Source of the DNA: an uncultured Actinomycetes bacterium
GTDB lineage: Bacteria; Actinomycetota; Actinomycetes; Streptosporangiales; Streptosporangiaceae
DNA: 64,000 bases
Assembly (NCBI GenBank): GCA_963722275.1
Contig: CAVRMX010000040.1
Coordinates: 50 to 64,049 of the forward strand
Reading direction: 5' to 3'
In this document: positions 12,447 through 29,033 of the stretch, in pieces
Numbering within the stretch: the first letter of the stretch is position 1
How the letters are laid out: every line of letters begins with the position of its first letter
The notes under the pieces: model-generated
Databases searched by the model: none
What the model was told of the DNA's origin: nothing
What the model saw: the letters and a program-made list of their open reading frames with translations, nothing else
Made by a program: the position numbers and the translations under genes

Positions 12447-12531
12447 CCACCATGATGAGGGCTTCTGCTGCTGCGTCACCGGAGACGGGAAGATAGCGTA
12501 ACTGAGGGGACCGGCAGGTAAGGAGCTGACG

Positions 12532-14571
12532 ATGACGGCGCTGCGCAGCTACGTGAGCGGGGCATGGACCGAGCCCGCCGACGACGGGCGGCCCGTGCTC
12601 GACGCGGTGACCGGCGAGGAAGTCGCGCGGGTCTCGTCGGCCGGCATCGACCTGGGTGCGGCGCTCGGCTATGGCCGCACCGTCGGCGGGCCGGCGCTGC
12701 GCGAGCTGACCTTCCACCAGCGCGCGGCGCTGCTCAAGTCGCTCGGGCAGCTGCTGCGCGAGCACCGCCAGGAGCTCTACGCCCTGTCCGCCCGCACCGG
12801 CGCGACGCTCGGGGACGCCAAGTTCGATGTCGACGGCGGCATCGGCGTCCTGCTCAGCTACGCCAGCCGGGCCAAGCGCGAGCTGCCGAACGACACGATC
12901 CTGGCCGAGGGCCCCGTCGAGCCGCTCGGCAAGGGCGGGACCTTCGTCGGCCAGCACATCCTCACCCCGCTGCACGGGGTGGCGGTGCAGATCAATGCGT
13001 TCAACTTCCCGGTCTGGGGTCCGCTGGAGAAGTTCGCGCCGGCGTTCATCGCCGGCGTGCCGAGCCTGGTCAAGCCGGCCACCCAGACCGCGTACCTGAC
13101 GGCCCGGCTGGTCGAGCTGATGGTGGATTCCGGGCTGCTGCCGGAAGGCTCGATCCAGCTGGTCTGCGGCAGCGTCGGTGACCTGTTCGATCATCTCGGC
13201 GAGCAGGACCTGGTGTCGTTCACCGGGTCTGCCGCCACCGCCCGGCAGCTGCGCGCCCACCCGGTCATCATCGGGCGGTCGGTACGGTTCAACGCCGAGG
13301 CGGACTCGCTGAACTGCTCGGTCCTCGGTCCCGAGGCGGGCCCGGGCACGCCCGAGTTCGACCTGTACATCCGGCAGCTGGTCAGCGAGATGACGGTGAA
13401 GGCAGGCCAGAAGTGCACCGCGATCCGGCGCGCCCTGGTCCCGGCCGCGCTGGCCGGCCAGGTGGCGGAGGCGGCGCGCGACCGGCTGGCCAAGGTGGTG
13501 GTGGGCAACCCGGCGGAGGAAAGCGTGCGGATGGGCGCGCTGGCCGGCCTTGAGCAGCGCGAGGAGGTCCGCCGTTCGGTCAAGGCGCTGCTGTCGGCGA
13601 GCCGGATCGTGTCCGGTGACCCGGACCGGGTGGACGTCGTCGGAGCCAGCGCCGAGCGGGGCGCGTTCATGGCGCCGCTGCTGCTGCAGGCCGACGACGC
13701 CAGCCGCCCGGAGCCGCATCAGGTAGAGGCGTTCGGGCCGGTCAGCACGATTATCAGCTACCGCGACACCGGCGAGGTGATCGAGCTCGCGGCACGCGGC
13801 CGGGGCAGCCTGGCCGGATCGATCGTCACGGCCGACCCGTCCTTCGCCCGCGACGTGGTCCTCGGCCTGGCGCCGTGGCACGGCCGGCTGCTGGTGCTGG
13901 ACCGCGAGGACGGGGCCGAGTCCACCGGCCACGGGTCGCCGCTGCCCATGCTGGTGCACGGCGGCCCGGGACGGGCCGGCGGCGGCGAGGAGATGGGCGG
14001 CGTCCGCGGCGTGCTGCACCATATGCAGCGCACGGCCGTACAGGCCAGCCCGCGGGTCCTGTCCGCCGTGACCCGCCGCTGGATCCCGGGTGCCGAACGG
14101 ACTACCGATGGCGGCCACCCCTTCCGCAAGCCGCTCACGGAGCTGCGCATCGGCGACACGGTGATCGCCGGGCCGCGTCAGGTCACGCTCGCGGACATCG
14201 AGCACTTCGCCGAGTTCACCGGTGACACCTTCTACGCGCACATGGACGAGGAGGCCGCCCGGGCGAACCCGTTCTTCGACGGCCGGGTGGCCCACGGCTA
14301 CCTCATCCTCTCCTTCGCCGCGGGCCTGTTCGTCCAGCCCGATCCCGGTCCGGTGCTGGCCAACTACGGCCTGGAGAACCTGCGCTTCCTGACCCCGGTC
14401 TACCCGGGCGACGAGCTGACGGTGACGCTCACCTGCAAGCAGATCACCCCGCGCGAGGACGCCGCGCACGGCGAGGTCCGGTGGGACGCCACCGTGACCA
14501 ACCAGGACGGGAAGCCGGTGGCCACTTACGACGTGCTGACCCTGATGGCCAAACAGTGGCCGCCCGCCTAG
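12532..14571 (+). CDS. paaZ: PaaZ-like bifunctional aldehyde dehydrogenase / MaoC-type hydratase
   Basis: 679 aa. N-terminal ALDH domain (FNFPVWGPLEKFAPAFIAGVP, GQKCTAIRR) fused to a C-terminal hot-dog/MaoC domain (IEHFAEFTGDTFYAHMDEEAA). Confidence 0.8.
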   Translation: MTALRSYVSGAWTEPADDGRPVLDAVTGEEVARVSSAGIDLGAALGYGRTVGGPALRELTFHQRAALLKSLGQLLREHRQELYALSARTGATLGDAKFDVDGGIGVLLSYASRAKRELPNDTILAEGPVEPLGKGGTFVGQHILTPLHGVAVQINAFNFPVWGPLEKFAPAFIAGVPSLVKPATQTAYLTARLVELMVDSGLLPEGSIQLVCGSVGDLFDHLGEQDLVSFTGSAATARQLRAHPVIIGRSVRFNAEADSLNCSVLGPEAGPGTPEFDLYIRQLVSEMTVKAGQKCTAIRRALVPAALAGQVAEAARDRLAKVVVGNPAEESVRMGALAGLEQREEVRRSVKALLSASRIVSGDPDRVDVVGASAERGAFMAPLLLQADDASRPEPHQVEAFGPVSTIISYRDTGEVIELAARGRGSLAGSIVTADPSFARDVVLGLAPWHGRLLVLDREDGAESTGHGSPLPMLVHGGPGRAGGGEEMGGVRGVLHHMQRTAVQASPRVLSAVTRRWIPGAERTTDGGHPFRKPLTELRIGDTVIAGPRQVTLADIEHFAEFTGDTFYAHMDEEAARANPFFDGRVAHGYLILSFAAGLFVQPDPGPVLANYGLENLRFLTPVYPGDELTVTLTCKQITPREDAAHGEVRWDATVTNQDGKPVATYDVLTLMAKQWPPA

Positions 14572-14807: not shown

Positions 14808-16491
14808 TTACGGCGCCGGGGGCGCTGGGGCCAGGGCCAGGCCGAGCGCGACCGCGTAGCGGTGGCCGAGTGGTCCGCCCGGGCAAATGCCGCCTACGTC
14901 GCCGCGGCCGACAGCCACGTCATCCGGCAGCGAGCGGGCGAGCACGCCGAGCAGTTCCTCATCGCCGGCCGGGCCGCCGACCACGAGGACCTGCGCCGGG
15001 TCCTGGCCGAGCGTGTGCACCGCCCGGCGGAAGTTCGCCGCCAGCACGGCCTGCTTCAGCCGCAGCCGGATGGCCCGCCATTCCCCCGGGCCGTGGTGCC
15101 GGTCGAATGGCAGCCAGCCGCCCGGGCCTTCCACTGCGAGCATGCCCGCCGCGGAGGCGGGCGCCGGGCACGTCCAGGAAGCCGCGGCGGCCGTCCTCGC
15201 CCTCCCACCGCTGTCCGCCGTCCACCCGCACGCACGGCCCGCGCTTGACCCAGTCGGCAGACGCGCGCGGGATGCCGAGCATCTCCGCGACCGCGGCGGT
15301 GAGTAGATCGCCCGCGCCGGCGGCCACCACGCTGCGCCCCGACCAGATGACGTCGATCGTGCCGGCCCCCAAGTCGACCACGACCGCGTCCTCGCGGCCG
15401 CCCGGCGTGGTGAGGGCGCCGAGCCGGGCCGCAGCCGACTCGCTGACCGGGCTGTGCACCGGGACTTCCAGCAGGTCCCGCAGCATGGAGGCGGTGTCAT
15501 CGTCGCCCGCACGGCCCAGCGAGGCGACCAGGACCGCCCGGCCGGTGCTGCCCAGCCGGGCGGTGGCCGCTTCGGCCGCGGCGGCCAGGTCCACCGCGAA
15601 CAGGTCATCGACCTCGCTGGCCACGGCACCGGTGCCGTACGCGTGTATGGCACCGACCGGCCAGCCCGCTAGCCGCGGGCACGCGGCCCGCAGCGTGAGA
15701 CGGCCCTCCCCCGCGGTCAGCACCCACGGTTCGGCCGGGGTCTCGGGCACGCCGGGCGTCTCTGGCAGCAGGCCAACCACGGCGTTGGCCTGGTCGGCCA
15801 GCATCCGGCTCAGTGCGGCCGCGTCACCCGCCTCGGCCTCGTCCAGCGGATCCAAGCCGAGGCGGGCCCCGAGCGCGACCGGGTCGGCCAGCACCCGCAG
15901 GGTGTGCCCGGGCGGGCGTACCTCGACCGCGAGCAGACGGCACGCGGCGGCCACGTGCGCGTCAACCTGGTCGATGACCGGCAGGCCGCCAGGCAGCCGG
16001 TTCGCCACCAGCACGCCTTCGTCGCCCGCCACCAGCACCGCACCGATCCTGGTCCCGGCCGCCAGCAAGGCCCGCAGCCGCACGGCGGCCTCGTCGTAGC
16101 GCAGGCCGGCCGGGACGATAGCCACCACGTCCGCCGCGCCACCCGGCGCCGCATCACCGAGCCGAAACGGCGGCCCGACGCAGGCCCCGGTCCCGCCAGG
16201 GGTAGGCACGCCCGCGGCCAGCACGCGCAGCCGACCGTTTGGCGGGGCCGCGCCGGGCACGGTCACCACCGAGGTGATGACCGGCCGCAGCGGCGCGATC
16301 CTGACCTCGCCGACGGCGCACCCGAGCTGGCGTTCCATCCGCCGGACCAGCGCGGCCGCGGCACGCAGCGAGCCCGGCGATCCCTTCCGGCCGCGCGTCG
16401 GCACCCGTCCGGCGCCCAGGATCTTGCCGCCGGACACCAGCACGACCTCCGTCGTGGCGTTGCCGACGTCGACCCCGGCGATCACCGTCAC
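14808..16491 (-). pseudogene. diol/glycerol dehydratase reactivase large subunit (DdrA/PduG-like); frame break near 15140-15175
   Basis: The N-terminal roughly 440 aa (MTVIAGVDVGNATTEVVLV..., DLGAGTIDVI) are in ORF 14959..16491. The conserved C-terminus (...VLVVGGPAGDEELLGVLARSLP...GPLGHRYAVALGLAL) is in the frame of ORF 14808..15653. Confidence 0.8.
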
Positions 16492-16503
16492 CCGGCGGCC
16501 TCC

Positions 16504-16866
16504 CTAAGCGGACAGGCCGCGGCGGGCGTAGACCTCGGCCGCCTCCGTGACCAGGGCCGCGCAGCGCGGCAGCCCCCGCCCGGCCAGGGAGGCGGCCAGC
16601 GCGGTGAGCTGGGCGGGCGTGGACCGGCCGGGCCGCAGCGCCTCGTAGACGGCCAGCACCTCGTCGTCAGGCAGCCGGGTCAGCTCGGCCGCGCGGCGCA
16701 GGTTCCCGGCCAGCTGCGGGTTGCCGTGCTGCTCCGCCACCACCGCCTGCCGCTCCAGCGTGTCCGGGTGAATTCGCAGGTCCGCCACGCCGACCTCGCC
16801 CGCCCGCACCGCCTCCACAGTGAGCCCGTCTACGGGTTTGCCCGACAGCGCCCGCACACCAGTCAC
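16504..16866 (-). CDS. pduE: B12-dependent diol dehydratase small (gamma) subunit
   Basis: 120 aa. Colinear with PduE/DhaB3 core motifs (DLRIHPDTLERQAVVAEQHGNPQLAGNLRRAAELTRLPDDEVLAVYEALRPGRST). It lacks the N-terminal extension of BMC-targeted PduE. Confidence 0.8.
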   Translation of the reverse strand: MTGVRALSGKPVDGLTVEAVRAGEVGVADLRIHPDTLERQAVVAEQHGNPQLAGNLRRAAELTRLPDDEVLAVYEALRPGRSTPAQLTALAASLAGRGLPRCAALVTEAAEVYARRGLSA

Positions 16867-16897
16867 CTCAGCACCATCCAGTCCTGTCAGTCAACGG

Positions 16898-16952
16898 CAA
16901 CGATGGAGCATTGATGTCGTTCCAGCGACAACGATGGAGCATTGATGTCGTT
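16898..16952. repeat. direct repeat, 2 x 24 bp (caacgatggagcattgatgtcgtt), 31-bp period
   Basis: Identical copies at 16898-16921 and 16929-16952. Each copy has imperfect inverted ends (AACGAT...GTCGTT). Confidence 0.9.
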
Positions 16953-16962
16953 GGCGCAGGAC

Positions 16963-17062
16963 GCAGGCCGGGCGCGAGGGGCAGGCCGGGCGCGAGGGGC
17001 AGGCTGGGCGCGGGGGGCAGGCTGGGCGCGGGGCGGGGCTGGGCGGGAGGCCTGGGCGGGGG
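16963..17062. repeat. 18-bp tandem repeat array (gcaggccgggcgcgaggg), 4 clear units plus degenerate ones
   Basis: Units at 16963, 16981, 16999 and 17017, decaying toward 17062. Confidence 0.9.
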
Positions 17063-17067
17063 CCGAG

Positions 17068-17602
17068 TCACGTTAGTCCCTCCAGTGACAGCTCTTCGGG
17101 GGATGCCCCGGGGACCATGCGGCGGCGCTCCAGTTCCATCAGGGCGATCACGGTGGTGTGGTAGCGGGCCTCGATGGCCTCGTCGGAGTACGGGTTGCGG
17201 GCCGGGTCGGGCGTGCCGCCCTTGGCGTGCCGCGCGGCGTTGGCGCCGAGCAGCCGGTAGAGCTCGGGGGTGACCGAGGGCGCCACCGAGTACAGCTCCA
17301 GGTTCGCCAGCGGGGCCAGGTCGCGGCGATGGATCAGCGCGGTGCCCTTGCCCTGCAGCCCGATTCCGATCCCCAGCCGGCCAGCCTGGCCGCGGCCAGG
17401 CCGATCCGGCCCAGGTCGACGCTGGCGTTGAAGCGGACGACCCGTCCGGCGCAGCCTTCCTCCTCCAGGCCCGCCAGCATCTCCCGCAGCACGTCCGTCA
17501 CCGCCAGGCCGGACAGGCACCGCCACACGTCCCGGCCGACGGCGGGCGAGACGCCGATGACGACGTCGCGGGGGTCCTGCCCGGGCCGGCCGGGCCGCTC
17601 AC
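17068..17602 (-). pseudogene. pduD: B12-dependent diol dehydratase medium (beta) subunit; at least two frame problems
   Basis: DPRDVVIGVSPAVG...LREMLAGLEEEGCAGRVVRFNAS is in the frame of ORF 17334..17864. GIGIGLQGKGTALIHRRDLAPLANLELYSVAP...ARYHTTVIALME is in ORF 17068..17526. The frame switches at about 17375-17380. No start codon lies in frame upstream of the first fragment. A GTGA junction at 17599-17602 fits only if another indel exists near 17576-17580. Confidence 0.8.
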
Positions 17603-19276
17603 GCCGAGCAACGGCACCGCGAACCGCGCCTGCTCGGCCCGCAGGTCGGCGACCCCGCGGGCCTGGCGGATGGCGTCGATCTCGGCCTGCCGGGACGGCG
17701 AGGGTTCGTAGCCGGTGCCCGGGCCCGCGTAGTCGTTCGGGTCGGTGACCAGGGACAGCACGCGCAACTGCTCGTCGAAGATGGCGGACGTCTGCAGGTA
17801 GTCGCCGGACAGCCTGGCCCGGGCGAAGGCCATGGTCCGTTCGGCCTCGTGGGAGTAGCCGCACTCGTCCAGGGCGGCCACGATGTCCACCACGGTCAGC
17901 CCGCGCTGGCGGATGGCGTGCGCCGCGCCCAGCACGGCCAGGGTGTCGGTCTCCCCCAGGTCCTTCGACCCGGCCGCGTCCACCGCCAGCTCCACGTGCT
18001 CGTCGGTGAAGTCCGCCAGGCCCAGGTGGGCGTAGACCGCGCGGCAGGCCTGGGCCGCCTCGCGGCGCAGCTCACCGATCCGGGCGGGGTCAACCGTCCG
18101 CAGGCCGCCGTCGACGCCCCAGTCCCGCTGCATGGCCAGGAAGTCGTCGATGTCCTCGGCGTTGAAGTTGCTCGGGCCGAACATGTTGTCGTAGCGCTGG
18201 ATCGACCCGAACCCGCTGAACGCGAAGTCCGAGCCCGCCAGCACGATCGGCAGCGTGCGGGAGGTCCGGCGCATGTCAGACTCGCTCATCAGCGCGTCAT
18301 TGCCCGAGCAGGACTCCAGGTTGCGCATCATCACCATGACGTTCTCGGCCATCAGCTCGCGCAGCCCGCCCGGCACCGCGGCGGCCACGCTGGCACCGTC
18401 GATCCCGCCGTTCTGCACGCCCTGGGCGCCGATGGCCCGGGCCAGCGCCACGCAGCGCGCCTCCAGGTAGAGCATCGACTGGCCCTGCGCGCCGGCCATC
18501 AGGACCTCGGCGCCGGCCCCCGAGGACACCCGCATCTTCATGCCGCGGGAGGCGTAAGCGGAGGTGAGGAAGGCCTTCGACCACGGGGTATCGTCGCCGT
18601 CTGTGAACACCTGCTCGGTGCCGTACAGCGAGACGGTCTCGGCGTAGGAGGTCAGCCCGCGCATGCCGAGCTCGAGCTCCATGGCCTCCTCGACGGAGCA
18701 CTGGATGAGCACGCCGTCGGCGCCGAACGCCGCCCCGATCAGGCAGGCCACCGCGTTGCTCGGCGCGTCGCCGAGCACCGGCACGGTGGTCTCGACCTCG
18801 CGGAACCCGAACGCCGCCGCGGTGGCCGCGTCGGCGGCGAGCAGCAGCGGGTCGTCGAGCCGGTTGGTGACGTGCGCCTGGTTGCTTGGCGTGCGGCGGG
18901 CGCGCAGCTTGGTCATCGCCATGACCAGTTCGGGCGGGCGGAGCTGGGCCAGCACGCGGGCCAGCTTGGCCGGGGTGGCGCCGGCGCTCAGCCTGACGAT
19001 CTCGTGCCGCGGCACGGCGGGGTCGACCAGGAGGCGGGCGAACGCCACGTCGGACAGGGCCATCGCCTCGCCCGCGGCGCTCAGGTCGAGGCCGTGCCGG
19101 GCGATGTAGGTGTCGATCGAGTCGAACTCCGCCTCGGGCACGCCGTCCAGCTCGGTCACCCGGCCGCCGGCCACGGCCAGGCTGGCCGCCGGGTCGTTCG
19201 GCGAGCGGAGCGCGGCCAGCCCGAGTCCGGGGTCCTCGATGGCGAAACCGTCCAGGTTGACCCGCTGCCGGTCCAT
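17498..19276 (-). CDS. pduC: B12-dependent diol/glycerol dehydratase large (alpha) subunit
   Basis: Colinear with PduC/DhaB1 (SPNDPAASL, TELDG, QCSVEEAMELELGMRG, SGNDALMSESD, NDYAGPGTGY). Homology ends about 17650. The last roughly 50 codons of the literal ORF overlap the beta-subunit homology in another frame, so the true 3' end is uncertain. Confidence 0.85.
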   Translation of the reverse strand: MDRQRVNLDGFAIEDPGLGLAALRSPNDPAASLAVAGGRVTELDGVPEAEFDSIDTYIARHGLDLSAAGEAMALSDVAFARLLVDPAVPRHEIVRLSAGATPAKLARVLAQLRPPELVMAMTKLRARRTPSNQAHVTNRLDDPLLLAADAATAAAFGFREVETTVPVLGDAPSNAVACLIGAAFGADGVLIQCSVEEAMELELGMRGLTSYAETVSLYGTEQVFTDGDDTPWSKAFLTSAYASRGMKMRVSSGAGAEVLMAGAQGQSMLYLEARCVALARAIGAQGVQNGGIDGASVAAAVPGGLRELMAENVMVMMRNLESCSGNDALMSESDMRRTSRTLPIVLAGSDFAFSGFGSIQRYDNMFGPSNFNAEDIDDFLAMQRDWGVDGGLRTVDPARIGELRREAAQACRAVYAHLGLADFTDEHVELAVDAAGSKDLGETDTLAVLGAAHAIRQRGLTVVDIVAALDECGYSHEAERTMAFARARLSGDYLQTSAIFDEQLRVLSLVTDPNDYAGPGTGYEPSPSRQAEIDAIRQARGVADLRAEQARFAVPLLGVSGPAGPGRTPATSSSASRPPSAGTCGGACPAWR

Positions 19277-19308
19277 GAACCGTACTCTGCCGACTGGCGT
19301 GTTGGCGC

Positions 19309-19414
19309 GGGGGGGCGACCCCCCGGGATCCCCCCGCTGTTCCTGCCGGGGGGACCCATCCCCCCGGACCCCCTTGGGAGGGGCTGCCCGCCCCCCCGTT
19401 CCCCCCCGGCCCCC
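19309..19414. repeat. G6/C6-hairpin dispersed repeat, copy B (intergenic, between the GntR gene and the pduC-like gene)
   Basis: Core ccggggggacccatccccccggacccccttggga at 19346-19379. It is flanked by further GGGGGGG-N-CCCCCC modules and fills most of the 141-bp spacer. Confidence 0.85.
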
Positions 19415-19417
19415 TAG

Positions 19418-20206
19418 TCATACCGCCGCCTGGGGGTGCAGCTCGACGACCCGGGCCCGGCCGGGGACGGCGCGGGACGTGCCGCCCTCGGTGCGGACGA
19501 CGATCCGGGTCCGGTCGGCCCGGAACAGGTCGCGGGAGAACTCGATCGGCTCGCCGTCGGGGTCGCTGGTCGTCCTGGTGATGGCCATCAGCGGCGCTCC
19601 TGGGTCCACGTCGAGGATGGCCGCCTCGTCCGCCGAGGCGAGGACCACCTCGATCCGCTCCACCGCGCCGGTGGGCTCGGCGCCGAAGTGCTCCTCGAGC
19701 AGCTCGTAGACCGAACCCCCGAGCGGCAGCTCAAGCAGGCCGGGGAAGCGCCGGGCCGGGAACCTGGCGTGCTCCAGGGAGAACGGGCTGCCGTCCGCGA
19801 GCCTGATCCGCACCAGGTCGATGACCAGGTCGCCGGGCCGGGCATGCAGCGCCTGCGCGGTAATGTCGTCCGCCTCGGCCAGCCGGGCGCTGAGCACCCG
19901 GGTCCCGGCCACCACGCCCTGGCTGCGCAGCAGCGCGGGCACGCCGACGATCCGGGACAGGTCCCGCTCGATCTTGCCCTTGGCCACGAAGGTGCCGCCG
20001 CCGCGGCCAGGCACCCGGCGGACCACGCCGCCGTCGGCGAGAACCGCGAGCGCCTGGCGCAGCGTCGCCCGGCTGACCCCGAACTCCGCCGCGAGCGCCC
20101 GCTCGGCGCCCAGCCGCTGCCCGGGGCGCAGCCGGCCGCTGCCGATCTGCTCGGCCAGGGCGCGCCTGACCTCCTCCGGCGTCCGTGCTGGCGGACTCTC
20201 GGTCAC
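19418..20206 (-). CDS. GntR-family (HutC/UTRA subfamily) transcriptional regulator
   Basis: GTG 20206 overlaps the SDR stop (GTGA). Winged-helix region [43 protein letters not shown], then a UTRA-like effector domain. The upstream part of track ORF 19418..20614 is in-frame read-through over the SDR gene. Confidence 0.85.
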
Positions 20207-21006
20207 GCGGAACCCGCCGCCATCGCTTCGGGTGACTCGGGCAGCACCTGGCCGCCGTCCACCACGATCGTCTGGCCGGTGATGTAGGCGGCCTCGTCGG
20301 TGGCCAGGAACAGGGCGGCGTAGCCGATCTCGTCGACGGTGCCAAGCCGGCGCATCGGGATCGCGGCGGTCATCCCGCTCGCGTAGTTCGAGCCGAGGTC
20401 GGCCAGGCCTTCGGTGGCGATGTTGCCCGGCAGGACCGCGTTGACGGTGATGGCCTTGGGCGCCAGCTCGATCGCGGCGGTCCGCATGAAGCCGAGCTGG
20501 CCGGCCTTGCTCGCGCCGTAGTGCGTCCAGCCGGGGAAGCCGGTGATCGGCCCGGTGATGGACGAGGTGAGGATGACCCGGCCGCGGCCCGAGGCCGCCA
20601 GGGCAGGCAGGCACGCCTGGACGCTGAGCACCGTGCCCTTCAGGTTGGTGCCGAACACCTGGTCAAGATCGGATTCGGTCAGGTCCTCGAGGCGGGCCTC
20701 GGGGAAGATCCCGGCGTTGGCGCAGAGCACGTCGATGCCGCCGAGGCGCTCCCGGGCGATCGCGGCCATCCGGCGGCAGTCCTCCCGGCTGGCCACGTCG
20801 GCCAGCACGAACGAGACCTCACCGGGCGGGCCGGCCGCGGCGGCCAGGGCGTGCAGCTCCTCGGCGGCGGCCCGGGCGGTGTCCGAGTCCCGCCCGGTGA
20901 TCAGCACCTTCGCGCCGCTGCGGGCGAACACGCTGGCGATCCCCTTGCCGATCCCGCGGGTGCCGCCGGTCACCACCACGGCACGGCCCGCGATCGATGT
21001 GAACAT
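20203..21006 (-). CDS. short-chain dehydrogenase/reductase (candidate 1-amino-2-propanol/aminoacetone dehydrogenase)
   Basis: 267 aa. [12 protein letters not shown] cofactor motif and a Y-x3-K catalytic motif (YGASKAG). The specific role is inferred from the RMM-type locus context. Confidence 0.8.
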
Positions 21007-21018
21007 GGCAGGTCCCTC

Positions 21019-22026
21019 TCAGTGAGTGCTTAGGTACGACTCCGCAAGGTCACAGCTGCCCTGCGTGTATCCGGCGCCGAGTTCGGCGGCGATGTCCACG
21101 GCCCGGTGCGAGCCGATCCACGCGACCAGCAGCAGCCGCCGGAACATGATGAACGTCCAGATCTCCGCCTGGTCCTCGGCGGACAGCCGGCCGGCCTTCC
21201 GGTAGCCCTCGAGCCAGCTGTCCACCAGGGCGGGGACGCCGGGCTCGTGCTCGAAGAAGCTGACCGATGTGCCCAGGTCGTACAGGTACCAGCTGAATCC
21301 GGAGTCGTCGAAGTCGATGACGCTGACCGACCCGTCGTGCACCAGCAGGTTGGCCAGCCGGGTGTCCGCGTGCACCAGGCCGTACCGGGCCGGGCCTGAG
21401 CCGAACGCCCGCAGCCGGGCGCGGAGCACGTCGTCCAGCCGGGACAGGACCCGGTGCTCGGACGGCCCGACGCCGATGCCGTCCTGCCAGCGGCCCCAGC
21501 GGGCCTGGCGGCCGAACGCCGACGCGTAGTCCCAGTGGAACCGGGTGAACCAGGGCGGCCGGGACCATTCCCTGGCGTGCCGGTGCATCCGCGCGGTGAT
21601 CTCGCCCAGCTCGGCGAAATGGGTAGCCGCCAGCGCCGGTTCCCCGCCCGGTTCGGTGCCCGGCAGGAACTCGAACCGCACGCAGTACCGCTCCGCCGTG
21701 CTGCCCCGCTCCCGGACGGTGACCACCCGCCGCCCGTCGGCGGCCGGCACCACCCGCGGCGTGCGCACGCCGGCCTCCGCGCGCAGCGCGTCCATCCAGG
21801 CCAGCTCCGACGCGATCTCCTGCTCGGTGTGGTAGCCCAGCCGGTGCACGCGGAGCACCGTGGGCCCGGTCTCGGCGCCGGACACCAGGAAGGTCGCGTT
21901 CTCCGAGACGTTGAGCAGCTCGACGGACGCCCCGGGGTGACCGCCGTAGGCGGCCAGCGCGTCCTGCGCGCAGCCGCGGACCCGGTCCATGACGTCGCCG
22001 CCGGCCGACAGGTCGTGCTCGCTCAT
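21019..22026 (-). CDS. aminoglycoside-phosphotransferase-fold kinase (candidate 1-amino-2-propanol kinase)
   Basis: 335 aa. APH catalytic loop LVHADTRLANLLV and IDFDDSGFSWYLYDL. The substrate is inferred from the locus type. Confidence 0.8.
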   Translation of the reverse strand: MSEHDLSAGGDVMDRVRGCAQDALAAYGGHPGASVELLNVSENATFLVSGAETGPTVLRVHRLGYHTEQEIASELAWMDALRAEAGVRTPRVVPAADGRRVVTVRERGSTAERYCVRFEFLPGTEPGGEPALAATHFAELGEITARMHRHAREWSRPPWFTRFHWDYASAFGRQARWGRWQDGIGVGPSEHRVLSRLDDVLRARLRAFGSGPARYGLVHADTRLANLLVHDGSVSVIDFDDSGFSWYLYDLGTSVSFFEHEPGVPALVDSWLEGYRKAGRLSAEDQAEIWTFIMFRRLLLVAWIGSHRAVDIAAELGAGYTQGSCDLAESYLSTH

Positions 22027-22028
22027 GG

Positions 22029-22697
22029 CTACCCCGCGTGCTCCCGGCCGGCCACGGCGGTGAGCACCTCGAGGATCTCGCGCTGCGCGCGCCGGACCTC
22101 GGCGGTCGGCCCGCTCAGGTAGATCCGCCCGGCCGCGCCGATCATCGACACGTCGACCAGCGTAACGCCCGGCGCGGCCCGTTCGGCCTCGTTGGCCGCG
22201 ACCGCCGCGAACAGGGCCGGGGTGACCTCGCTGACGCCCAGCGTGTCCCCGGGGATGATCATGGAGCCGGAGCGGTTCCTGTTGATGATGATCGCGTGCG
22301 CGTCGGTCACGTCCTCGATCACGTCGGAGAACAGGATCCGCGGCCTCAGCTGGTCCTTCTCGTCGGCGCCCAGCCCGTCCAGGATCGCCTGCCCGGCCCG
22401 GCGCACGTCGCCGGAGTCCCGCCCGTGCACCTCGAGCACGCCGAACTGCCGCTCGACGAACACGATGCCCGGCTCGACCGCGGGCACCGCGCGCAGCGCC
22501 AGGTCGGTGACCCGCTCGATGGCCAGCGCGGGCGCCACCTCGACGATGAGCGCGTGCTGCCCGGCGAACGGCGGGTAGCCGCGGGCCCGGGTCGGGGTGC
22601 CCAGGTACGCGGCGAACTGCGGCTGCAGGTCGCGCACCAGGAGGTAGACCCGCAGCTCAGCCGCTCGCGGGTCGCCCGGGTCTGCGGCGCTAGTCAC
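22029..22697 (-). CDS. BMC shell protein with two BMC-like domains (tandem/BMC-T-like), paralogue 1
   Basis: 222 aa. The second half shows the BMC pattern ([41 protein letters not shown]). The first half is a divergent copy ([28 protein letters not shown]). Clear paralogue of 23669..24271. Confidence 0.75.
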
Positions 22698-22971
22698 CGC
22701 TGATCTTGAAGTGCCTGGCCAGGTCGGGGTGCGGGCGCGGGATCACGTGGACCGAGACGAGCTCGCCCACGGTCAACGCGGTCTCGGCGCCGGCCTCGGT
22801 GGCCGCCTTCACCGCGCCGACGTCCCCGACGATCGTCACGGACACCAGCCCGTCGCCGACCTCCTCGCGGCCGACGATCGTCACGTTCGCCGCCTTGACC
22901 ATGGCGTCTCCCGCCGCGAGCGCGGCCACGTACCCCTTGGTCTCGATCAGTCCGATCGCGTTATCCGCCAT
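22690..22971 (-). CDS. BMC-H hexameric shell protein (PduA/EutM-like)
   Basis: 93 aa. Canonical BMC domain sequence [63 protein letters not shown]. Confidence 0.95.
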
Positions 22972-22974
22972 CGT

Positions 22975-23241
22975 TCACTCTCCTTCCTGCTGGGTCCCCG
23001 GGTCCGGGTCGATAGAGCCGATGATCAGGGCGTCGACGGGCGGCGGCTTGCCGGCGAACCAGGCCGCCGCGACCGAGCCCTGGGTGATGAGCACGCGCTC
23101 GCCCACCCCGCTGCCGAGCACGTCGAAGGCGATCAGCCGCTGTCCGGTGCCCTCGGCCTCCACCTCGAGGAAGGCGCCGTTGGGCAATTCGGCCAGCCGG
23201 CGCGTGGCCCAGACGCTCCCGATCACCGTTGCGGTCAGCAT
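22975..23241 (-). CDS. BMC-P pentameric vertex protein (EutN/CcmL family)
   Basis: 88 aa. MLTATVIGSVWATRRL...AFDVLGSGVGERVLITQGSVAA...VDALIIGSID matches the EutN/CcmL pattern. Confidence 0.9.
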   Translation of the reverse strand: MLTATVIGSVWATRRLAELPNGAFLEVEAEGTGQRLIAFDVLGSGVGERVLITQGSVAAAWFAGKPPPVDALIIGSIDPDPGTQQEGE

Positions 23242-23668
23242 CAGCGCTCCTTCTCGATCTGCACGCCGCTCGCCCTGGCCCGGTCCCTGGCCAGCGGGGT
23301 GAGCACGGCACCGCGGCCGAGCACCAGCCGCTGGCCGGCCCGCGCCGCTGCTTTGATCACCGCTTCGGTCACCGCGCCGCGCTCGATGCGGCGCACCAGC
23401 GCGGATTCCCCGGCCCGTTCGGCCCCATGGGCGGCACCGGCCGGGACCGGCGCGGCGGCTGCGGCGGCGGATGGGGCGGCCAGCCTGAACCGTTTCCGGC
23501 CGGACCGGAGCTCCTCACGCTGATCCGGGTCAAGGTCCAGGAGGCGTGTCACGAACGCCGCCAGGCCTTCGTCGGTTGAAAGGTTAACCGTTTCGGTACC
23601 GGTCAGGCCGTTAGGCAGCACGTCCCGGAGGACCTCGCGAACCAGTGCGCGGAGCTCGTCGAGGTCGC

Positions 23669-23672
<4 letters not shown>
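23241..23672 (-). CDS. 143-aa BMC-locus protein: encapsulation-peptide-like N-terminus, Ala/Pro linker, small C-terminal domain of unknown function
   Basis: ATG 23672 overlaps the upstream stop (ATGA). N-terminus MSDLDELRALVREVLRDVL resembles the PduD targeting helix. Ala/Pro linker AAPSAAAAAAPVPAGAA. C-terminal domain ...AVTEAVIKAAARAGQRLVLGRGAVLTPLARDRARASGVQIE. Confidence 0.6.
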
Positions 23673-24271
<599 letters not shown>

Positions 24272-24273
24272 GG

Positions 24274-25881
24274 TCAGCCTCCGGCCAGCTGGGATAGCTC
24301 TTCGAGGATGAGCCTGCGGATCTCCTCGCGCAGCGCCGAGGTATCGGGCCCAGAACCATTAGGTTCCGAACGGCCCGGGCCGCCTGCCCGTTCTCCGCCG
24401 CCTGCGGGCGGCGGGCGGTCGCCCCGCTGGTTGGACGCCACCGGGTACGGGGGTACCGGGCCGGCCGGCGCCTGCCAGGGCACCAGCCCGGCGAAGTCGC
24501 CGAACGGCTCGGCCGGGTCGCGGTTGTAGGCCAGCCGCGTCCACTGCACCAGGTGGCTGGGGTGCAGGTTCTCCGCCACCGAGGACCGGCCGAAGAACCC
24601 GGTGCCGATCGTCATCGTGGGGGCCAGGTTGGTCTGGTAGCCCGCGCTGCCCAGGCTGCTGCCCACGTTGACGGCGACCCGCAGGACCTCGACCGCGGCC
24701 CCGTACTCCATGATCACCTGCGGGTCGGTGCTGTGGATGGCCGCCGAGTGGCCGCGGCCGGACAGCCGCAGCACGGCCCGCGCGGCGCCGATCCCGCGCC
24801 GGGCGGACGGCACCCGGACCAGGCCGAGCACCGGGCAGAGCTTCTCGTGGGCCAGCGGTTCCTCCGGCATCACCAGGTCGAACGGCGCGAGCAGGACACG
24901 GGTGCGGTTCGGTACCCGCAGGCCCGCCTCGGCCGCGATCCAGCTCGCGTCCTTGCCGACGAAGCGGATGTCGAACCGCCCGCCTGGGAACAGCATCGCG
25001 GATACGCGGTCCCGCTCGCCCGCCTCGAGCAGGTAGGCGCCGGCCTGCTTCAGCTGCCGCAGCAGCGGGGTCGCCGCCTGCTCGGCGACGATCAGCACCG
25101 ACTCGCTGGTGCACAGGACCGAGTTGTCGAAGCTCTTGCTGTCCACGATCCGCCTGGCCGCCTTGGCCAGGTCGGCGGTCGCGTCCACCAGCACCGGCAC
25201 GTTGCCCGGCCCGACGCCGAGGGCGGGCGTGCCCGAGCTGTAGGCGGCGCGCACCACGGGAACGCCGCCGGTCGCGACGATGACGCTGGTGCGCTCGTCG
25301 GTCATCAGCGCGTCGATCAGCGGCACCGACGGCTCGTCCACCACCTGGATGACGCCGTCGGGGGCACCCGCCGCGACGGCCGCGGCGCCGAGGGTGCGCG
25401 CGGCGTCGGCGCAGACCTCCTTGGCCAGCGGGTGCGGGCTGAGCACGACCACGCTGCGGGTCATCAGCGCGAGCAGGCACTTGAAGAACACCGTGGCGAC
25501 CGGGTTGGTCGACGGGGTAAGCGCCAGCACCACGCCCGCCGGGCGCGGCACCTCGACGATCTTGGCTTCGGCGTCGATCCGCGGCGTCACGTAGTCGTGG
25601 CCCGCGTAATAGTCCACGATCCCGGTGCTGCAGGCGATGTTCTTGAGCACCTTGTGCTCGGCCACGCCGAACCCGGTCTCGCGCACCGCCCAGTCCGCGT
25701 ACTCGCGGGCCTTGGCCGCGCCGGCCGCGGCGGCGGCGCGCACGATCGCGTCCACTCCAGCCTTGTCGTACCGGGCGAAGGCGCGCGCGGCCCACTCCGC
25801 CCGCTGCAGCATGGCCCGCGCCCGCGGCACCCCCGCCGGGTCGGTGAGCAGCTCGGCCACGCTGATCCGCGCCTCGGTCAC
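24274..25881 (-). CDS. CoA-acylating aldehyde dehydrogenase (PduP/EutE class) with a C-terminal encapsulation peptide
   Basis: GTG 25881 overlaps the upstream stop (GTGA). Catalytic-Cys motif SFDNSVLCTSES. C-terminal Pro/Gly linker, then the amphipathic helix SALREEIRRLILEELSQL. Confidence 0.9.
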   Translation of the reverse strand: MTEARISVAELLTDPAGVPRARAMLQRAEWAARAFARYDKAGVDAIVRAAAAAGAAKAREYADWAVRETGFGVAEHKVLKNIACSTGIVDYYAGHDYVTPRIDAEAKIVEVPRPAGVVLALTPSTNPVATVFFKCLLALMTRSVVVLSPHPLAKEVCADAARTLGAAAVAAGAPDGVIQVVDEPSVPLIDALMTDERTSVIVATGGVPVVRAAYSSGTPALGVGPGNVPVLVDATADLAKAARRIVDSKSFDNSVLCTSESVLIVAEQAATPLLRQLKQAGAYLLEAGERDRVSAMLFPGGRFDIRFVGKDASWIAAEAGLRVPNRTRVLLAPFDLVMPEEPLAHEKLCPVLGLVRVPSARRGIGAARAVLRLSGRGHSAAIHSTDPQVIMEYGAAVEVLRVAVNVGSSLGSAGYQTNLAPTMTIGTGFFGRSSVAENLHPSHLVQWTRLAYNRDPAEPFGDFAGLVPWQAPAGPVPPYPVASNQRGDRPPPAGGGERAGGPGRSEPNGSGPDTSALREEIRRLILEELSQLAGG

Positions 25882-27302
25882 CGCCGTCCCCCCTTGGCCG
25901 CGTCGTCCCTGGCCGTGGCGATGGCCACCTCGGTCCGCTCGAGCAGTTCCTCGCAGAGCGCCGGGGTGAGCAGGATGCCCGGCTTGTACTGCAGCACGCG
26001 GGAGTCGAGGGTGGAGAAGATCGCCCACACCCCGTTCTCGTAGAGCCGCTTCATGACGAACTTGGCGCCCTGCGGATGGCCGAACTCCAGGCCCATGACC
26101 AGCCCGTCCTGCCGGATGCCGGTGAACCAGTCCGGGTACTGGGCCTGGATCTGCGCCAGCCCGCCGGTGAACATCCCCGCGATGTAGTGCACCATCGACC
26201 TGACCTCGGGCCGGCAGGTGATCTCCAGCGTCTTGAGCGCCGTTACGCAGCCGAGCTCGGCACCGCCGAACGTGGACATGTGCGCGAAGCCGTCCTCGGT
26301 CAGCCAGCCCGCGGCGGCCTCCGTGGCCAGCACCACGCTGACCGGGTACATGCCGCCGGAGATGCCCTTTCCTGAGACCAGGATGTCCGGGTTGACGCCA
26401 TGCTTGCTGATGGCCCACAGCTCGCCGGTGCGCATCAGCCCGGTCTGCACCTCGTCGGCGATGTAGAGCGCGCCGTAGCGCTCACACAGCCGCTTGACCC
26501 CGGCCAGGTAGCCGGGCGCGGGCAGCGGGAAGCCGTAGGTGGCCGGGATCGTCTCCATGATCACCGCGGCCACGTCCCGGCCGCGCAGCGCCGCCTCCAT
26601 CGCGTCCAGGTCGTTGAACGGCACGTGGGTGAACTCGTCAGGACGGTCGGACAGGAACAGGGTCGCGAACCGCTCGTCGCCGGTGGCCACGGCCAGCCCG
26701 GTGTGCCCGTGGTAGGCCTTGGCCACCGAGACGATGCCGCGCTTCTTCGTAGCGTGACGCGCGCTCTTCAGCGCGATGTCGATCGCTTCCCCGCCACCGC
26801 TGCCGTACATCACCTTTGTTAGCCGCGTTGCCTCGGGGGGAACGATCCCCCCAGACCCCCCTGCTCCTTTTCCGGGGGGACCCATCCCCCCGGACCCCCC
26901 TTGGGAGAGACCCATCCTCCCAGACCCCCCCTGGGAGGCCCCTTGCGGGGCCCCCGATGCCGGTGCGGCCGCCGCCGCCGTGGCGTTGACCAGGGCTTCG
27001 GCGAGGGCGGTGCGGGCCAGGCTCGGGAAGTGATGGTTGCCGATGTCGAAGCGCTGCATGGCCGCGGTCACGGCGGCGGCCACCTCGGGGTTGCGGTGGC
27101 CGAGGTTGTAGGTGCCGCCGTTGAGGTGGACGTCGATGAGGCGCTTGCCCTCGACGTCGTAGATGAAGTAGCCCTCGCGGCGGTCGATGACCAGCGGGAC
27201 CCCGGAGTCGATCCAGAACTGCGTCTTGTCCGGGTTCCAGAACTGCTTGGACTTCGCCAGCATGTCCTGCTTCGAGGCGAATGAGATCAGTTCCTCGGTC
27301 AC
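25878..27302 (-). CDS. class-III aminotransferase-fold PLP enzyme (candidate 1-amino-2-propanol O-phosphate phospho-lyase) carrying an insertion of about 45 aa
   Basis: Aminotran_3 motifs (HLNGGTYNLGHRNPEV, ADEVQTGLMRTGELWA, SGKGISGGMYP). Start chosen at GTG 27302 (GGAGG 6 nt upstream). GTG 27317 and the track start 27437 are alternatives. The insert comes from repeat copy C. Confidence 0.85.
   Translation of the reverse strand: MTEELISFASKQDMLAKSKQFWNPDKTQFWIDSGVPLVIDRREGYFIYDVEGKRLIDVHLNGGTYNLGHRNPEVAAAVTAAMQRFDIGNHHFPSLARTALAEALVNATAAAAAPASGAPQGASQGGSGRMGLSQGGSGGMGPPGKGAGGSGGIVPPEATRLTKVMYGSGGGEAIDIALKSARHATKKRGIVSVAKAYHGHTGLAVATGDERFATLFLSDRPDEFTHVPFNDLDAMEAALRGRDVAAVIMETIPATYGFPLPAPGYLAGVKRLCERYGALYIADEVQTGLMRTGELWAISKHGVNPDILVSGKGISGGMYPVSVVLATEAAAGWLTEDGFAHMSTFGGAELGCVTALKTLEITCRPEVRSMVHYIAGMFTGGLAQIQAQYPDWFTGIRQDGLVMGLEFGHPQGAKFVMKRLYENGVWAIFSTLDSRVLQYKPGILLTPALCEELLERTEVAIATARDDAAKGGRR
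26835..26955. repeat. G6/C6-hairpin dispersed repeat, copy C (inside the aminotransferase-fold gene, in frame)
   Basis: Core ccggggggacccatccccccggaccccccttggga at 26872-26906, plus related modules (ggggggaacgatcccccc, gagacccatcctcccagacccccc). On the minus strand it translates as APQGASQGGSGRMGLSQGGSGGMGPPGKGAGGSGGIVPP. Confidence 0.85.
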
Positions 27303-27485
27303 CGCGACCTCCGTCACCGTTCGCGGGCGCCGCAACCATATGGCTCGTTCGGCTAAACCAAAGAAGTACCGCCCTGACCGTTTGATGTCAAGAGGTTCTG
27401 TTTCACTCTGATTAACTGAACCAGAACTCTTGATCATGGTTCCCGCAGGCTGTTACGCTCCCCGCAAATGCGCCGGAGGTGTACC
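27303..27485. promoter_or_regulatory. divergent promoter/operator region between the BMC operon and the permease gene
   Basis: GC content is clearly lower than the flanks. Palindrome CCATATGG at 27336-27343. Inverted repeat GAACCA(27418-23)-N13-TGGTTC(27437-42). GGTTCTG (27394-400) pairs with CAGAAC (27422-27). Protein binding is not demonstrated. Confidence 0.4.
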
Positions 27486-29033
27486 ATGGCACATCCCCAG
27501 GTCCCCGAAGTCCCCCGCCTGCCCGTGCGGCCGCCTGCCGAGGACTTTGACGTCTCGCAGCGCTCGGACGTAGCCAAGCTCCGCAAGGGCGCGATCGGGC
27601 TCGGCGGCGTCCTGTTCCTGACCGTGACCGGGTCGGCCCCGATCTCGGCCATGCTGTTCAATGTCCCGATCATGGTGGGCTTCGGACAGGGCGTCGGCGC
27701 CCCGGCCGCCTTCGAGTTCGCGGCGGTCGTGCTCGTCGTGTTCGCGGTCGGCTACGTCGCAATGGCCAGGAAGAAGACCACGGCGGGCGGCTTCTACTCC
27801 TACATCAGTCACGGGCTCGGCCGGGAACTGGGCATCGGCACGGGCTACGCCTCGGTGGTCGCGTACTCCGTGTTCGAAGCGTCCCTGGCCGGCGGTTTCG
27901 CCTACTTCCTCAGCCTGAAGCTGAACCAGTTCGGGGTGACCATCGCCTGGCCCTGGCTGGCCCTGGCCATGGTGGTGATTATCAGCATCCTGACCTACTT
28001 CGACGTCCGGATCTCCAGCATGGTGCTCGCGATCGGGCTGATCAGCGAGATCGTCATCCTGCTCATCTTCGACGTCTTCCTGTTCGCCCGCGGGCACGTG
28101 ACCGCGGCCCCGCTCAACCCCGTGAACGCCTTCAAGAGCTTCCCGGCGCAGGGTACGCTCGCAGCCGGCGCGATCGGCATCGGCCTGTTCTTCGCCTTCT
28201 GGTCCTGGGTCGGCTTCGAGATGGCACCGAACTACGGCGAGGAATCCCGCGACCCCAAGCGGATCGTCCCCCGCGCCCTGTACATCTCGGTGATCGGGCT
28301 CGGCGTCTTCTACACGGTCACGGCCTGGGCCTCGCTCGCCGGGTACCCGACCACAAGGGCCGCCGCCGCCGTGTCGCAACACAACGCGGCCCAGTACTTC
28401 CTCACCCCGGCCGGCCACTATGCCGGGCAATGGGTGGCCTCGGTGATGAGCTACCTGATCATCACCGGCTCGTTCGCCTGCGGCATGGCCTTCCACAACA
28501 CCACCGCGCGGTACATGTACTCACTCGGCCGTGAGGGCCTGGCCCCGCGGGCGCTCGGCAAGACCCACCCCAAGTGGAAGAGCCCGCACATCGCGTCCCT
28601 CACCCAGTCGGTCGTCGCCGCCATCATCATCGGGCTTTTCGCCATCTTCACCGGCAGCAACAACCCCAACACGCAGGCCTACATCCAGCTCTACGGCCTG
28701 ATGGCGGTGATGGGCGTGATCATCATCCTGTCGGTGCAGGCGGTGGTCTCGCTCAGCGTGCTGGTCTACTACGAGCGCTTCCACCGGGACGAGGCGCACT
28801 GGTGGCGGACCAGGCTGGCCCCGCTGCTCTCGTTCATCTCCCAGGCCTTCGTGGTGTACCTGCTGTTCACGAACATCGATTTCCTGGGCGCCGGCAGCTA
28901 CAGCTACGCGAACTGGCTGGGTCCGATCGACGCCGTGGTGGTCCTGGCCGGCGTCGGCACCGCCTTCTATTTCAAGAAATACAAGCCCGCCAAGTACGAG
29001 CAGGCCGGCCGCCTGATCAACGAGGGTCTCTGA
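27486..29033 (+). CDS. APC-family amino acid/amine permease
   Basis: ATG 27486 with GGAGG 7 nt upstream. About 12 hydrophobic segments. APC-type N-terminal motif GAIGLGGVLFLTVTGSAPISAM. Confidence 0.85.
   Translation: MAHPQVPEVPRLPVRPPAEDFDVSQRSDVAKLRKGAIGLGGVLFLTVTGSAPISAMLFNVPIMVGFGQGVGAPAAFEFAAVVLVVFAVGYVAMARKKTTAGGFYSYISHGLGRELGIGTGYASVVAYSVFEASLAGGFAYFLSLKLNQFGVTIAWPWLALAMVVIISILTYFDVRISSMVLAIGLISEIVILLIFDVFLFARGHVTAAPLNPVNAFKSFPAQGTLAAGAIGIGLFFAFWSWVGFEMAPNYGEESRDPKRIVPRALYISVIGLGVFYTVTAWASLAGYPTTRAAAAVSQHNAAQYFLTPAGHYAGQWVASVMSYLIITGSFACGMAFHNTTARYMYSLGREGLAPRALGKTHPKWKSPHIASLTQSVVAAIIIGLFAIFTGSNNPNTQAYIQLYGLMAVMGVIIILSVQAVVSLSVLVYYERFHRDEAHWWRTRLAPLLSFISQAFVVYLLFTNIDFLGAGSYSYANWLGPIDAVVVLAGVGTAFYFKKYKPAKYEQAGRLINEGL

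Follow-up and report, generated by a model that had tools for sequence, protein, structure and literature searches.

A predicted RMM2-type metabolosome locus with an adjoining B12 diol-dehydratase module in an uncultured soil actinomycete

Where does a bacterial microcompartment (BMC) locus end when the genes of a B12-dependent diol dehydratase follow directly behind its regulator gene, and do these genes take part in the pathway of the organelle? The question is raised by a stretch of 64,000 nucleotides from an uncultured Actinomycetes bacterium (contig CAVRMX010000040.1 of assembly GCA_963722275.1, positions 50 to 64,049 of the forward strand), which is called the window below and has a G+C content of around 72%. 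An earlier note on this DNA had proposed that positions 19418–29033 contain a complete locus of the Rhodococcus/Mycobacterium microcompartment (RMM) type, also termed aminoacetone-utilization microcompartment (AAUM). As judged from its sequence, the locus covers 14808–29033, that is 4.6 kb beyond the end reported at first, and is of the RMM2 subtype of Axen et al. 2014. It is very probably one single metabolosome locus, situated in the chromosome of a soil actinomycete that is related to metagenome-assembled genomes (MAGs) labelled Streptosporangiaceae.

Extent, identity and setting of the locus

Genes were called in the window from a listing of open reading frames (ORFs) and from the G+C content at third codon positions. 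Between 19418 and 29033, scans with Pfam and NCBIfam identified ten minus-strand genes and one divergent plus-strand permease gene (Table 1), and every family that the earlier note had named was recovered. The tight coupling it had described is also present: at the junctions of the ten-gene run, the reading frames overlap by 1–8 nt, with overlaps of the GTGA or ATGA type among them, or are separated by 2–12 nt. The stop codon of the short-chain dehydrogenase/reductase (SDR) gene, for example, is overlapped by the GTG start of gntR (GTGA). Two claims had to be revised. The start of the class-III aminotransferase-fold enzyme, which is the presumed signature enzyme, had been placed at 27437 and was moved to GTG 27302, behind a GGAGG sequence, by alignment with relatives. 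The locus is also not complete within 19418–29033, as B12 diol-dehydratase and reactivase genes on the same strand run on to 14808. By the definition of Axen et al. 2014 (PMC4207490), the RMM2 subtype combines the RMM gene set with homologues of diol dehydratase. The assignment to RMM2, and not to the RMM1 type of Mycobacterium smegmatis, was made because the RMM gene set is adjoined by such homologues.

Relatives were collected by scanning one genome per GTDB species with the 143-residue protein encoded in the run (p143). This yielded 80 loci (numbered with the prefix L), the gene order of which was read by tblastn with the window proteins. Almost all stem from MAGs of soil origin with the label uncultured Actinomycetes or Streptosporangiaceae, and isolates contributed two, Pseudonocardia acaciae DSM 45401 and Nocardioides bigeumensis JCM 16021 (L069). 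The order divergent permease, aminotransferase, aldehyde dehydrogenase (AldDH), BMC-T, p143, BMC-P, BMC-H, BMC-T, APH-fold kinase, SDR and GntR is kept in the 80 loci, as far as the contigs reach. An exception is L039 (CAVTZG010000026.1), which has the permease and shell genes, no match to the aminotransferase or the AldDH, and a p143 match limited to residues 1–71. It may be a deletion variant.

The shell set consists of one BMC-H, two tandem CcmP-like BMC-T and one BMC-P, which are one-to-one orthologues of the M. smegmatis proteins MSM0271–0275. The best natural match of each in the PDB is the positionally equivalent M. smegmatis RMM protein, namely MSM0271 (5SUH, E 8.5e-91) for the BMC-T at 22029–22697, MSM0272 (5L38, E 1.9e-40) for the BMC-H, MSM0273 (5L37, E 1.2e-35) for the BMC-P and MSM0275 (5L39, E 3.5e-91) for the BMC-T at 23669–24271. 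An engineered tandem BMC-H fusion (6NER) outscores 5L38. A search for BMC and EutN domains over 22029–24271, which the earlier note had suggested, gave matches to PF00936 and PF03319. The Pfam BMC model left the BMC-T at 22029–22697 unmatched, but both BMC-T were identified by the NCBIfam CcmP-like model and by PDB sequences.

When PDB sequences were searched, the kinase matched 6EF6 from M. smegmatis over its full length (E 3.7e-95), and the SDR matched 6CI8/6CI9 from the same species (E 1e-99). We take 6EF6 to be the (S)-1-amino-2-propanol kinase and 6CI8/6CI9 to be the 1-amino-2-propanol dehydrogenase of Mallette & Kimber. On these matches, the kinase and the SDR of the window are orthologous to this structurally characterized pair. 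Together with the shell matches and the conserved gene order, they strongly support the RMM/aminoacetone-utilization identity that had been proposed. RMM is catalogued as 1-amino-2-propanol utilizing (PMC6787980), and its induction by amino-2-propanol via GntR has been described (PMC4207490). In some related loci (L017, L019), an extra APH-fold kinase gene is found upstream of the aminotransferase gene; L017 also has an extra SDR gene and L019 an extra gntR.

The C-terminus of the AldDH consists of a variable, disordered Pro/Gly-rich linker followed by the peptide …ALREEIRRLILEELSQLAGG. The terminal helix, ALREEIRRLIxEEL, is kept in all 17 diverse relatives sampled and in Rhodococcus jostii RHA1, and reads as a textbook C-terminal encapsulation peptide. 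The NCBIfam matches of the EutE/AdhE type fall short of the equivalog cut-offs, and the CoA-acylating role is a predicted one.

The p143 protein is strongly conserved. Its family comprises 3041 homologues in 602 clusters at 50% identity; the homologue in RHA1 is annotated by RefSeq as a hypothetical protein. A search of the PDB with a family profile returned nothing below E 0.07. The family alignment and an AlphaFold2 (AF2) model delineate an N-terminal amphipathic helix LRALVREVLRDVL, spanning residues 3–18 in the model, a helical hairpin, a disordered Ala/Pro linker and a C-terminal β-α-β-α-β unit that bears the motif VLTPLARD. The mean pLDDT of the model is 64, with around 82 at the C-terminus and low confidence elsewhere. 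With this model, Foldseek gave insignificant matches to small α/β proteins only (IF2-C1-like at E > 0.05).

Alignment of profiles pointed to PduM. With hhalign, p143 scored 63% against a PduM profile built from 5 sequences and 88–90% against one built from 117 sequences (E 1.5e-6 to 3e-6), compared with 12% for a reversed control. The confident part of the alignment is confined to the C-terminal third (43–48 residues). The pduM gene lies directly upstream of pduN/EutN in five enterobacterial records, and p143 likewise precedes EutN in 80 of 80 loci. PduM, too, is a small protein; its initial amphipathic helix has been demonstrated to act as a targeting signal, and the protein is required for core and shell to stay together. 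It has been described as having no known homologues outside Pdu systems (PMC12108088). The p143 protein is likely the RMM counterpart of PduM, acting as a core-shell organizer.

The permease starts at ATG 27486, behind a GGAGG site conserved in relatives. The region that separates it from the aminotransferase gene is strongly conserved, in blocks. It contains an inverted repeat, GTTCTGGTTCA-N11-TGAAACAGAAC, at 27395–27427 with 91% complementarity. The arms covary among lineages (GGTTC/GAACC in the window, GGTTG/CAACC in others), and TTGACA follows directly. The repeat and TTGACA constitute a candidate GntR operator and promoter.

That the locus is embedded in the core chromosome and directly abuts core genes, as the earlier note had stated, was borne out. 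The genes rbpA, tpiA, pgk and gap were identified in the window, and secG was recognized in the close relative L001, where it separates tpiA from rbpA. Around 25 close relatives share the gap-pgk-tpiA-rbpA junction, and the chromosomal placement is therefore old and clade-wide. No tRNA, integrase or transposase was found at the edges, in agreement with the note: the sole tRNA of the window is at 38071, and the scanned flanking ORFs contain no such domains. Horizontal acquisition was rejected on account of these edges, of the shared junction and of the G+C content, which shows a mild dip over the permease and control region only.

Table 1. Features of the RMM2-type locus, in window coordinates
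Feature	Position	Strand	Matches and basis
Diol-dehydratase reactivase, alpha-like subunit	14808–16491	-	PF08841, PF18427
Diol-dehydratase small subunit	16504–16866	-	PF02287 E 6e-35
18-nt tandem repeat in the dehydratase/small-subunit spacer	16963–17050		Tandem Repeats Finder (TRF) score 120
B12 diol/glycerol dehydratase, large and medium subunits	17068–19276	-	PF02286 E 4e-230; PF02288 fragments in two frames
G-run/C-run hairpin repeat cluster, gntR stop to dehydratase start	19309–19410		
GntR/HutC-type regulator (winged helix-turn-helix and UTRA)	19418–20206	-	PF00392, PF07702
SDR	20203–21006	-	PF13561, PF00106
APH-fold kinase	21019–22026	-	PF01636 E 3e-30
BMC-T, MSM0271 orthologue, CcmP/CsoS1D-like	22029–22697	-	NCBIfam CcmP-like E 4e-59; PDB 5SUH
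BMC-H hexamer, MSM0272 orthologue	22690–22971	-	PF00936 E 1e-25; PDB 5L38
BMC-P (EutN/CcmL pentamer), MSM0273 orthologue	22975–23241	-	PF03319 E 2e-19; PDB 5L37
143-residue protein (p143)	23241–23672	-	No match among Pfam, NCBIfam or PDB sequences
Second BMC-T, MSM0275 orthologue, CcmP/CsoS1D-like	23669–24271	-	NCBIfam CcmP-like E 7e-62; PDB 5L39
AldDH, EutE/AdhE-type, predicted CoA-acylating	24274–25881	-	PF00171; NCBIfam E 1e-111 to 1e-127
Class-III aminotransferase-fold enzyme, 474 aa	25878–27302	-	PF00202 E 1e-66
Divergent control region, 182 nt	27303–27485		Alignment of around 20 relatives
Amino-acid/amine permease, APC-type	27486–29033	+	PF13520 E 4e-33, PF00324

Beyond the reactivase end of the locus, and convergent to it, lies a plus-strand gene for a PaaZ-like fusion of an aldehyde dehydrogenase with a MaoC hydratase (12532–14571), which is conserved in around 20 close relatives. 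It is flanked by a gene for a decarboxylase dependent on pyridoxal phosphate (PLP) on the same strand (11043–12446).

The B12 diol-dehydratase module

Downstream of gntR and on the same strand follow the large subunit of the dehydratase, a medium-subunit sequence, the small subunit and a reactivase α-like gene. In relatives (short-read MAGs and the Nocardioides isolate), one fused ORF of around 745 aa encodes both the large and the medium subunit. It is unbroken in each of the 11 nearest relatives examined and spans its full length in 54 loci. According to a citation of Liu et al. 2010 in PMC7674605, a natural α-β fusion was earlier noted for M. smegmatis and Mesorhizobium loti. A short linker joins the medium to the large subunit, with no N-terminal extension of the PduD/PduE type. 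The small subunit has around 120 residues, compared with 173 for Salmonella PduE. The tandem repeat that precedes its gene has the unit GCAGGCTGGGCGCGAGGG in 4.9 copies, and its length is not the same in the window, L001 and L002. In the window and in related loci, the reactivase consists of one α-like protein of around 570 aa. A gene for a reactivase β-subunit was not seen in this lineage, whereas Salmonella and Halomarina have the canonical α and β pair. Among close relatives, the reactivase evolves faster than the dehydratase, with identities of 67–92% and 89–97%, respectively.

The module adjoins the RMM genes in around 65 of the 80 loci. As a rule it follows gntR in the same direction; at times it is inverted or located past the permease. 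In the majority of close relatives, the N-terminus of the dehydratase (M-T-x-x-P-V-G-R-I-R-F-M-D) starts at the gntR stop codon or within a few bases of it, and the dehydratase therefore belongs to the operon. A different view of RMM2 was preferred by Axen et al. (PMC4207490), in which the module is an independent neighbour that carries out ordinary dehydration of 1,2-propanediol or glycerol, apart from the microcompartment. This would agree with the lack of a visible extension resembling an encapsulation peptide at the N-terminus of the dehydratase, with the position of the module on the other strand or beyond the permease in some loci, and with the few loci in which the module is missing, such as L057 and L074. 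It is considered somewhat unlikely here, given the frequency with which the module adjoins the RMM genes, the overlapping or abutting start in most close relatives, and the residues of the substrate pocket.

These residues, given in diol-dehydratase numbering, set the linked enzymes apart as a distinct subfamily. The Ca2+-binding and catalytic residues Gln141, His143, Glu170, Glu221, Gln296, Asp335 and Ser362 are kept in the window and in 54 of 54 linked enzymes. In place of Ser301, Gln336, Thr337, Phe338 and His340, however, all 54 full-length linked enzymes have Asp, Ala, Leu, Met and Glu, respectively. The Asp301, Ala336 and Glu340 of this subfamily, being invariant, do not fit well with an ordinary propanediol or glycerol dehydratase that happens to be encoded next to the organelle. 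Ser301 of the canonical enzyme points towards the substituent on C3 of bound glycerol, and the substitutions S301A and Q336A alter specificity and inactivation (PMC7674605). The canonical, unfused dehydratase of the archaeon Halomarina keeps Ser, Gln and His at positions 301, 336 and 340.

A fused dehydratase with Asp, Thr and Glu at these three positions is encoded on a plasmid of Shinella zoogloeoides (NZ_CP132313.1, L084). At 5959–13611, it lies with its small subunit beside genes for an SDR, a phosphotransferase, a class-III aminotransferase and a GntR regulator, and no shell genes are present. The occurrence of such a proteobacterial enzyme, with Asp301 and Glu340, in this company likewise disfavours an independent neighbour. 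The same cluster also contains genes for an ABC transporter, an FGGY kinase and a HAD phosphatase. A plasmid of Agrobacterium cucumeris encodes a dehydratase 93% identical to that of Shinella. In the plasmid collection, all matches to the RMM2-type dehydratase are at most 53% identical, and the fused form is found only in Shinella and Agrobacterium. The Shinella cluster was rejected as an orthologous RMM module and is regarded as an analogue: its SDR and aminotransferase are around 30% identical to those of the window, and its phosphotransferase is unmatched at 1e-6.

The linked dehydratases are read as a distinct subfamily that would be functionally tied to modules of an amino-alcohol kinase and an aminotransferase. 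That their substrate is an amino-substituted diol is no more than a reasonable guess. Conversion of 3-amino-1,2-propanediol to aminoacetone was dismissed as unlikely on chemical grounds: in the known diol dehydratases, hydrogen is abstracted at C1 and the product is an aldehyde.

A bolder proposal, tentative and rather doubtful, joins several of these points. The RMM2 dehydratase would not serve propanediol or glycerol, its pocket being suited to a cationic amino-substituted diol or amino alcohol; its link to the kinase and aminotransferase module would be older than the shell; and p143 would be the first PduM homologue outside Pdu. The greater age of the link would follow from the Shinella plasmid, on which this combination is found with no shell genes beside it. 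If the whole proposal held, the RMM2 organelle would gain a second, B12-dependent entry route.

Signature-enzyme chemistry and broken reading frames

A number of observations weigh against the interpretation of 14808–29033 as one working metabolosome locus with the expected chemistry; they concern cofactor recycling, transcription signals, p143, the signature enzyme and the reading frames of the dehydratase module. Among all genes called and scanned in 14808–29033, there is no PduL/Pta and no Fe/Zn alcohol dehydrogenase, and thus no phosphotransacylase or alcohol dehydrogenase for cofactor recycling. An incomplete metabolosome core that lacks these two enzymes is itself a criterion of membership in RMM/AAUM, and it is found here. 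Neither in the control region nor in the dehydratase half did simple consensus scans reveal a promoter or a terminator. The Pfam model of PduM (PF15953) did not match the p143 of the window, and two of 39 family members matched at E of around 0.1.

The nearest solved or curated relatives of the aminotransferase-fold enzyme are putrescine, ornithine and acetylornithine aminotransferases, there is no solved phospho-lyase among its PDB matches at E < 1e-30, and it reaches no equivalog cut-off of NCBIfam. Aldehyde-forming chemistry is unproven because the nearest relatives are transaminases and no such cut-off is reached. The phospho-lyase step is taken from the M. smegmatis model, and the sequence appears to lend it no specific support; in the accepted model, it is the invariably co-encoded kinase that argues for this step. 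The enzyme might instead be an ω-transaminase, which would act on aminoacetone, 1-amino-2-propanol or the phosphate of the latter and yield methylglyoxal, lactaldehyde or phospholactaldehyde, to be acylated by the encapsulated dehydrogenase. Besides the closest relatives, the intact region of the PLP-lysine motif (SGKGISGG) in the translated sequence is consistent with a transaminase, and a methylglyoxal route was the original proposal of Axen et al. 2014 (PMC4207490). However, overall similarity does not separate class-III transaminases from phospho-lyases, and the constant presence in the operon of the kinase orthologous to 6EF6 is explained most simply if the phosphate is the leaving group of a lyase. 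A transaminase is considered rather unlikely on this balance, though still a serious contender, and a phospho-lyase enters the pathway proposed below only conditionally.

The same enzyme carries an in-frame insertion of 49 residues, rich in Gly, Pro and Ser and encoded by 26823–26978. In around 55 of 64 homologues, the site is occupied by a loop of 3 residues, PPG in most cases. The 49-residue insert is common only to the window and L001; a version of 32 residues is present in L010 and L016, and short ones in three other homologues. The DNA that encodes the insert is built from copies of a hairpin repeat of G-runs and C-runs with the core GGGGGGACCCATCCCCCCGGACCCCC (repeat family D4/D8). This repeat occurs at three sites of the window: 5165–5190 (intergenic), the spacer between gntR and the dehydratase genes pduCD (19309–19410, intergenic), and in frame at 26823–26978. 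A motif search gave 4 matches, compared with 0 expected by chance. The cluster at 19309–19410, which has no counterpart in L002 (gap of 115 nt), has displaced the conserved N-terminus of the dehydratase in the window. Related loci contain insertions of differing length at the same loop of the aminotransferase and at the same gntR-pduCD junction.

Relative to intact relatives, the dehydratase of the window is broken by two 1-nt deletions, at around 17585 and 17379, the second of which is also present in L002. The reactivase has a 1-nt insertion at around 15170, detected as a change of frame in tblastn with the intact L005 protein. The locus, or at least its dehydratase half, might therefore be decaying in this genome, through real frameshifts, repeat insertions and the tandem repeat in the operon. 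The distribution of the frameshifts would fit, as three of them fall within 4.7 kb of dehydratase and reactivase genes and none within around 14 kb of neighbouring genes. So would the frameshift common to L002, the repeats inserted into the signature enzyme and between gntR and pduCD, and the damage to the reactivase in relatives, where L006 has lost an internal segment and the frame is broken several times in L001.

The opposing evidence comes in part from the two nearest relatives. These are ENA metagenome contigs, 98% and 95% identical to the window over 20 kb, with many scattered 1-base indels, in tpiA and in the AldDH, SDR and gntR genes, as is typical of assembly error. In addition, frameshift site 3 resembles a blend of two variants seen in relatives. 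It is plausible that the frameshifts of the window are assembly errors, given that indels reach even into tpiA in the nearest assemblies and that site 3 has a blended appearance. The 49-residue insertion keeps the frame and sits in a loop of variable length in relatives, and the RMM core genes are all intact. Decay is deemed possible but not the likelier explanation, and the interpretation as one RMM2-type metabolosome locus is kept.

Proposed pathway and comparison with known systems

The pathway proposed for the locus is drawn from the work on M. smegmatis and from the general metabolosome model. The amine would be imported by the permease. In the cytosol, the SDR would interconvert aminoacetone and 1-amino-2-propanol, and the kinase would phosphorylate the alcohol. 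Inside the shell, the aminotransferase-fold enzyme would release an aldehyde, propionaldehyde if it is a phospho-lyase, which the peptide-tagged AldDH would capture as acyl-CoA. The PduM-like p143, a putative peptide-tagged structural factor, would join the cargo core and the shell. GntR is expected to repress the divergent promoters until the amino alcohol is present. The B12 dehydratase, which lacks the N-terminal targeting extensions of PduD and PduE and has an acidified pocket, appears to be co-transcribed and probably provides a second, cytosolic entry into the same pathway.

The comparison of relatives bears on the role of the RMM2 dehydratase, which operon structure and a subfamily-specific pocket place, with some probability, in the pathway of the organelle. 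It also suggests that the only unannotated protein of the RMM core is probably a core-shell organizer of the PduM type. Sequence does not appear to settle whether the signature enzyme is a phospho-lyase. Worth following are the operon-linked dehydratase with its altered pocket, p143 with its likeness to PduM, and the reaction that the signature enzyme catalyses; cultured carriers of the operon exist.

Like the window, Salmonella Pdu combines a B12 diol dehydratase and its reactivase, an acylating AldDH with an encapsulation peptide, BMC-H along with BMC-T and BMC-P, and a PduM-type protein encoded directly upstream of the pentamer gene. Unlike Pdu, the window has no PduL, PduQ, PduO or PduS. 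Its dehydratase differs from that of Pdu by the α-β fusion, by the lack of the N-terminal targeting extensions of PduD/PduE and by Asp, Ala and Glu in place of Ser301, Gln336 and His340. The peptide of the AldDH is C-terminal in the window and N-terminal in Pdu, and the BMC-T of the window are CcmP-like, of the stacking type. The fused dehydratases of M. smegmatis and Mesorhizobium loti resemble that of the window in carrying the medium-subunit sequence on the large subunit, with a separate small subunit.

The synteny with Rhodococcus expected by the earlier note was found, in rearranged form, on plasmid pRHL2 of R. jostii RHA1 (NC_008270.1). Genes for an AldDH, BMC-T, a p143 homologue, EutN, BMC-H, an aminotransferase, GntR and a phosphotransferase are shared with the window, with identities of 72% (BMC-T a), 76% (BMC-H) and 39% (p143). 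The RHA1 locus differs in being plasmid-borne, in its gene order, in an aminotransferase that is only 28% identical and in having no dehydratase. It also contains, at 8375–13864 (L083), two identical copies of the block of BMC-T, p143 homologue, EutN and BMC-H, unlike the window.

The RMM1/AAUM locus of M. smegmatis (MSMEG_0268–0278 region), from which Mallette & Kimber solved the shell-protein, kinase and SDR structures cited above, has the same shell set (BMC-H, two BMC-T and BMC-P), kinase, SDR, AldDH, class-III aminotransferase, GntR and permease as the window. It has no adjoining diol dehydratase, and hydrolases instead (Axen et al., PMC4207490), whereas the window has the dehydratase and reactivase module, the 49-residue insert in the aminotransferase and a different host lineage.

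The RMM2 type (Axen et al. 2014, PMC4207490; Sutter et al. 2021, PMC8217296) shares with the window the combination of RMM genes and diol-dehydratase homologues. The description of 2014 placed the dehydratase on the opposite strand and took it to be transcribed separately, whereas in the window and most of the 80 loci it is co-directional, right after gntR and often overlapping. The opposite strand in that account is a description of the first examples and not a defining criterion. The locus is a further example of a catalogued organelle type, RMM2, that is already well described.

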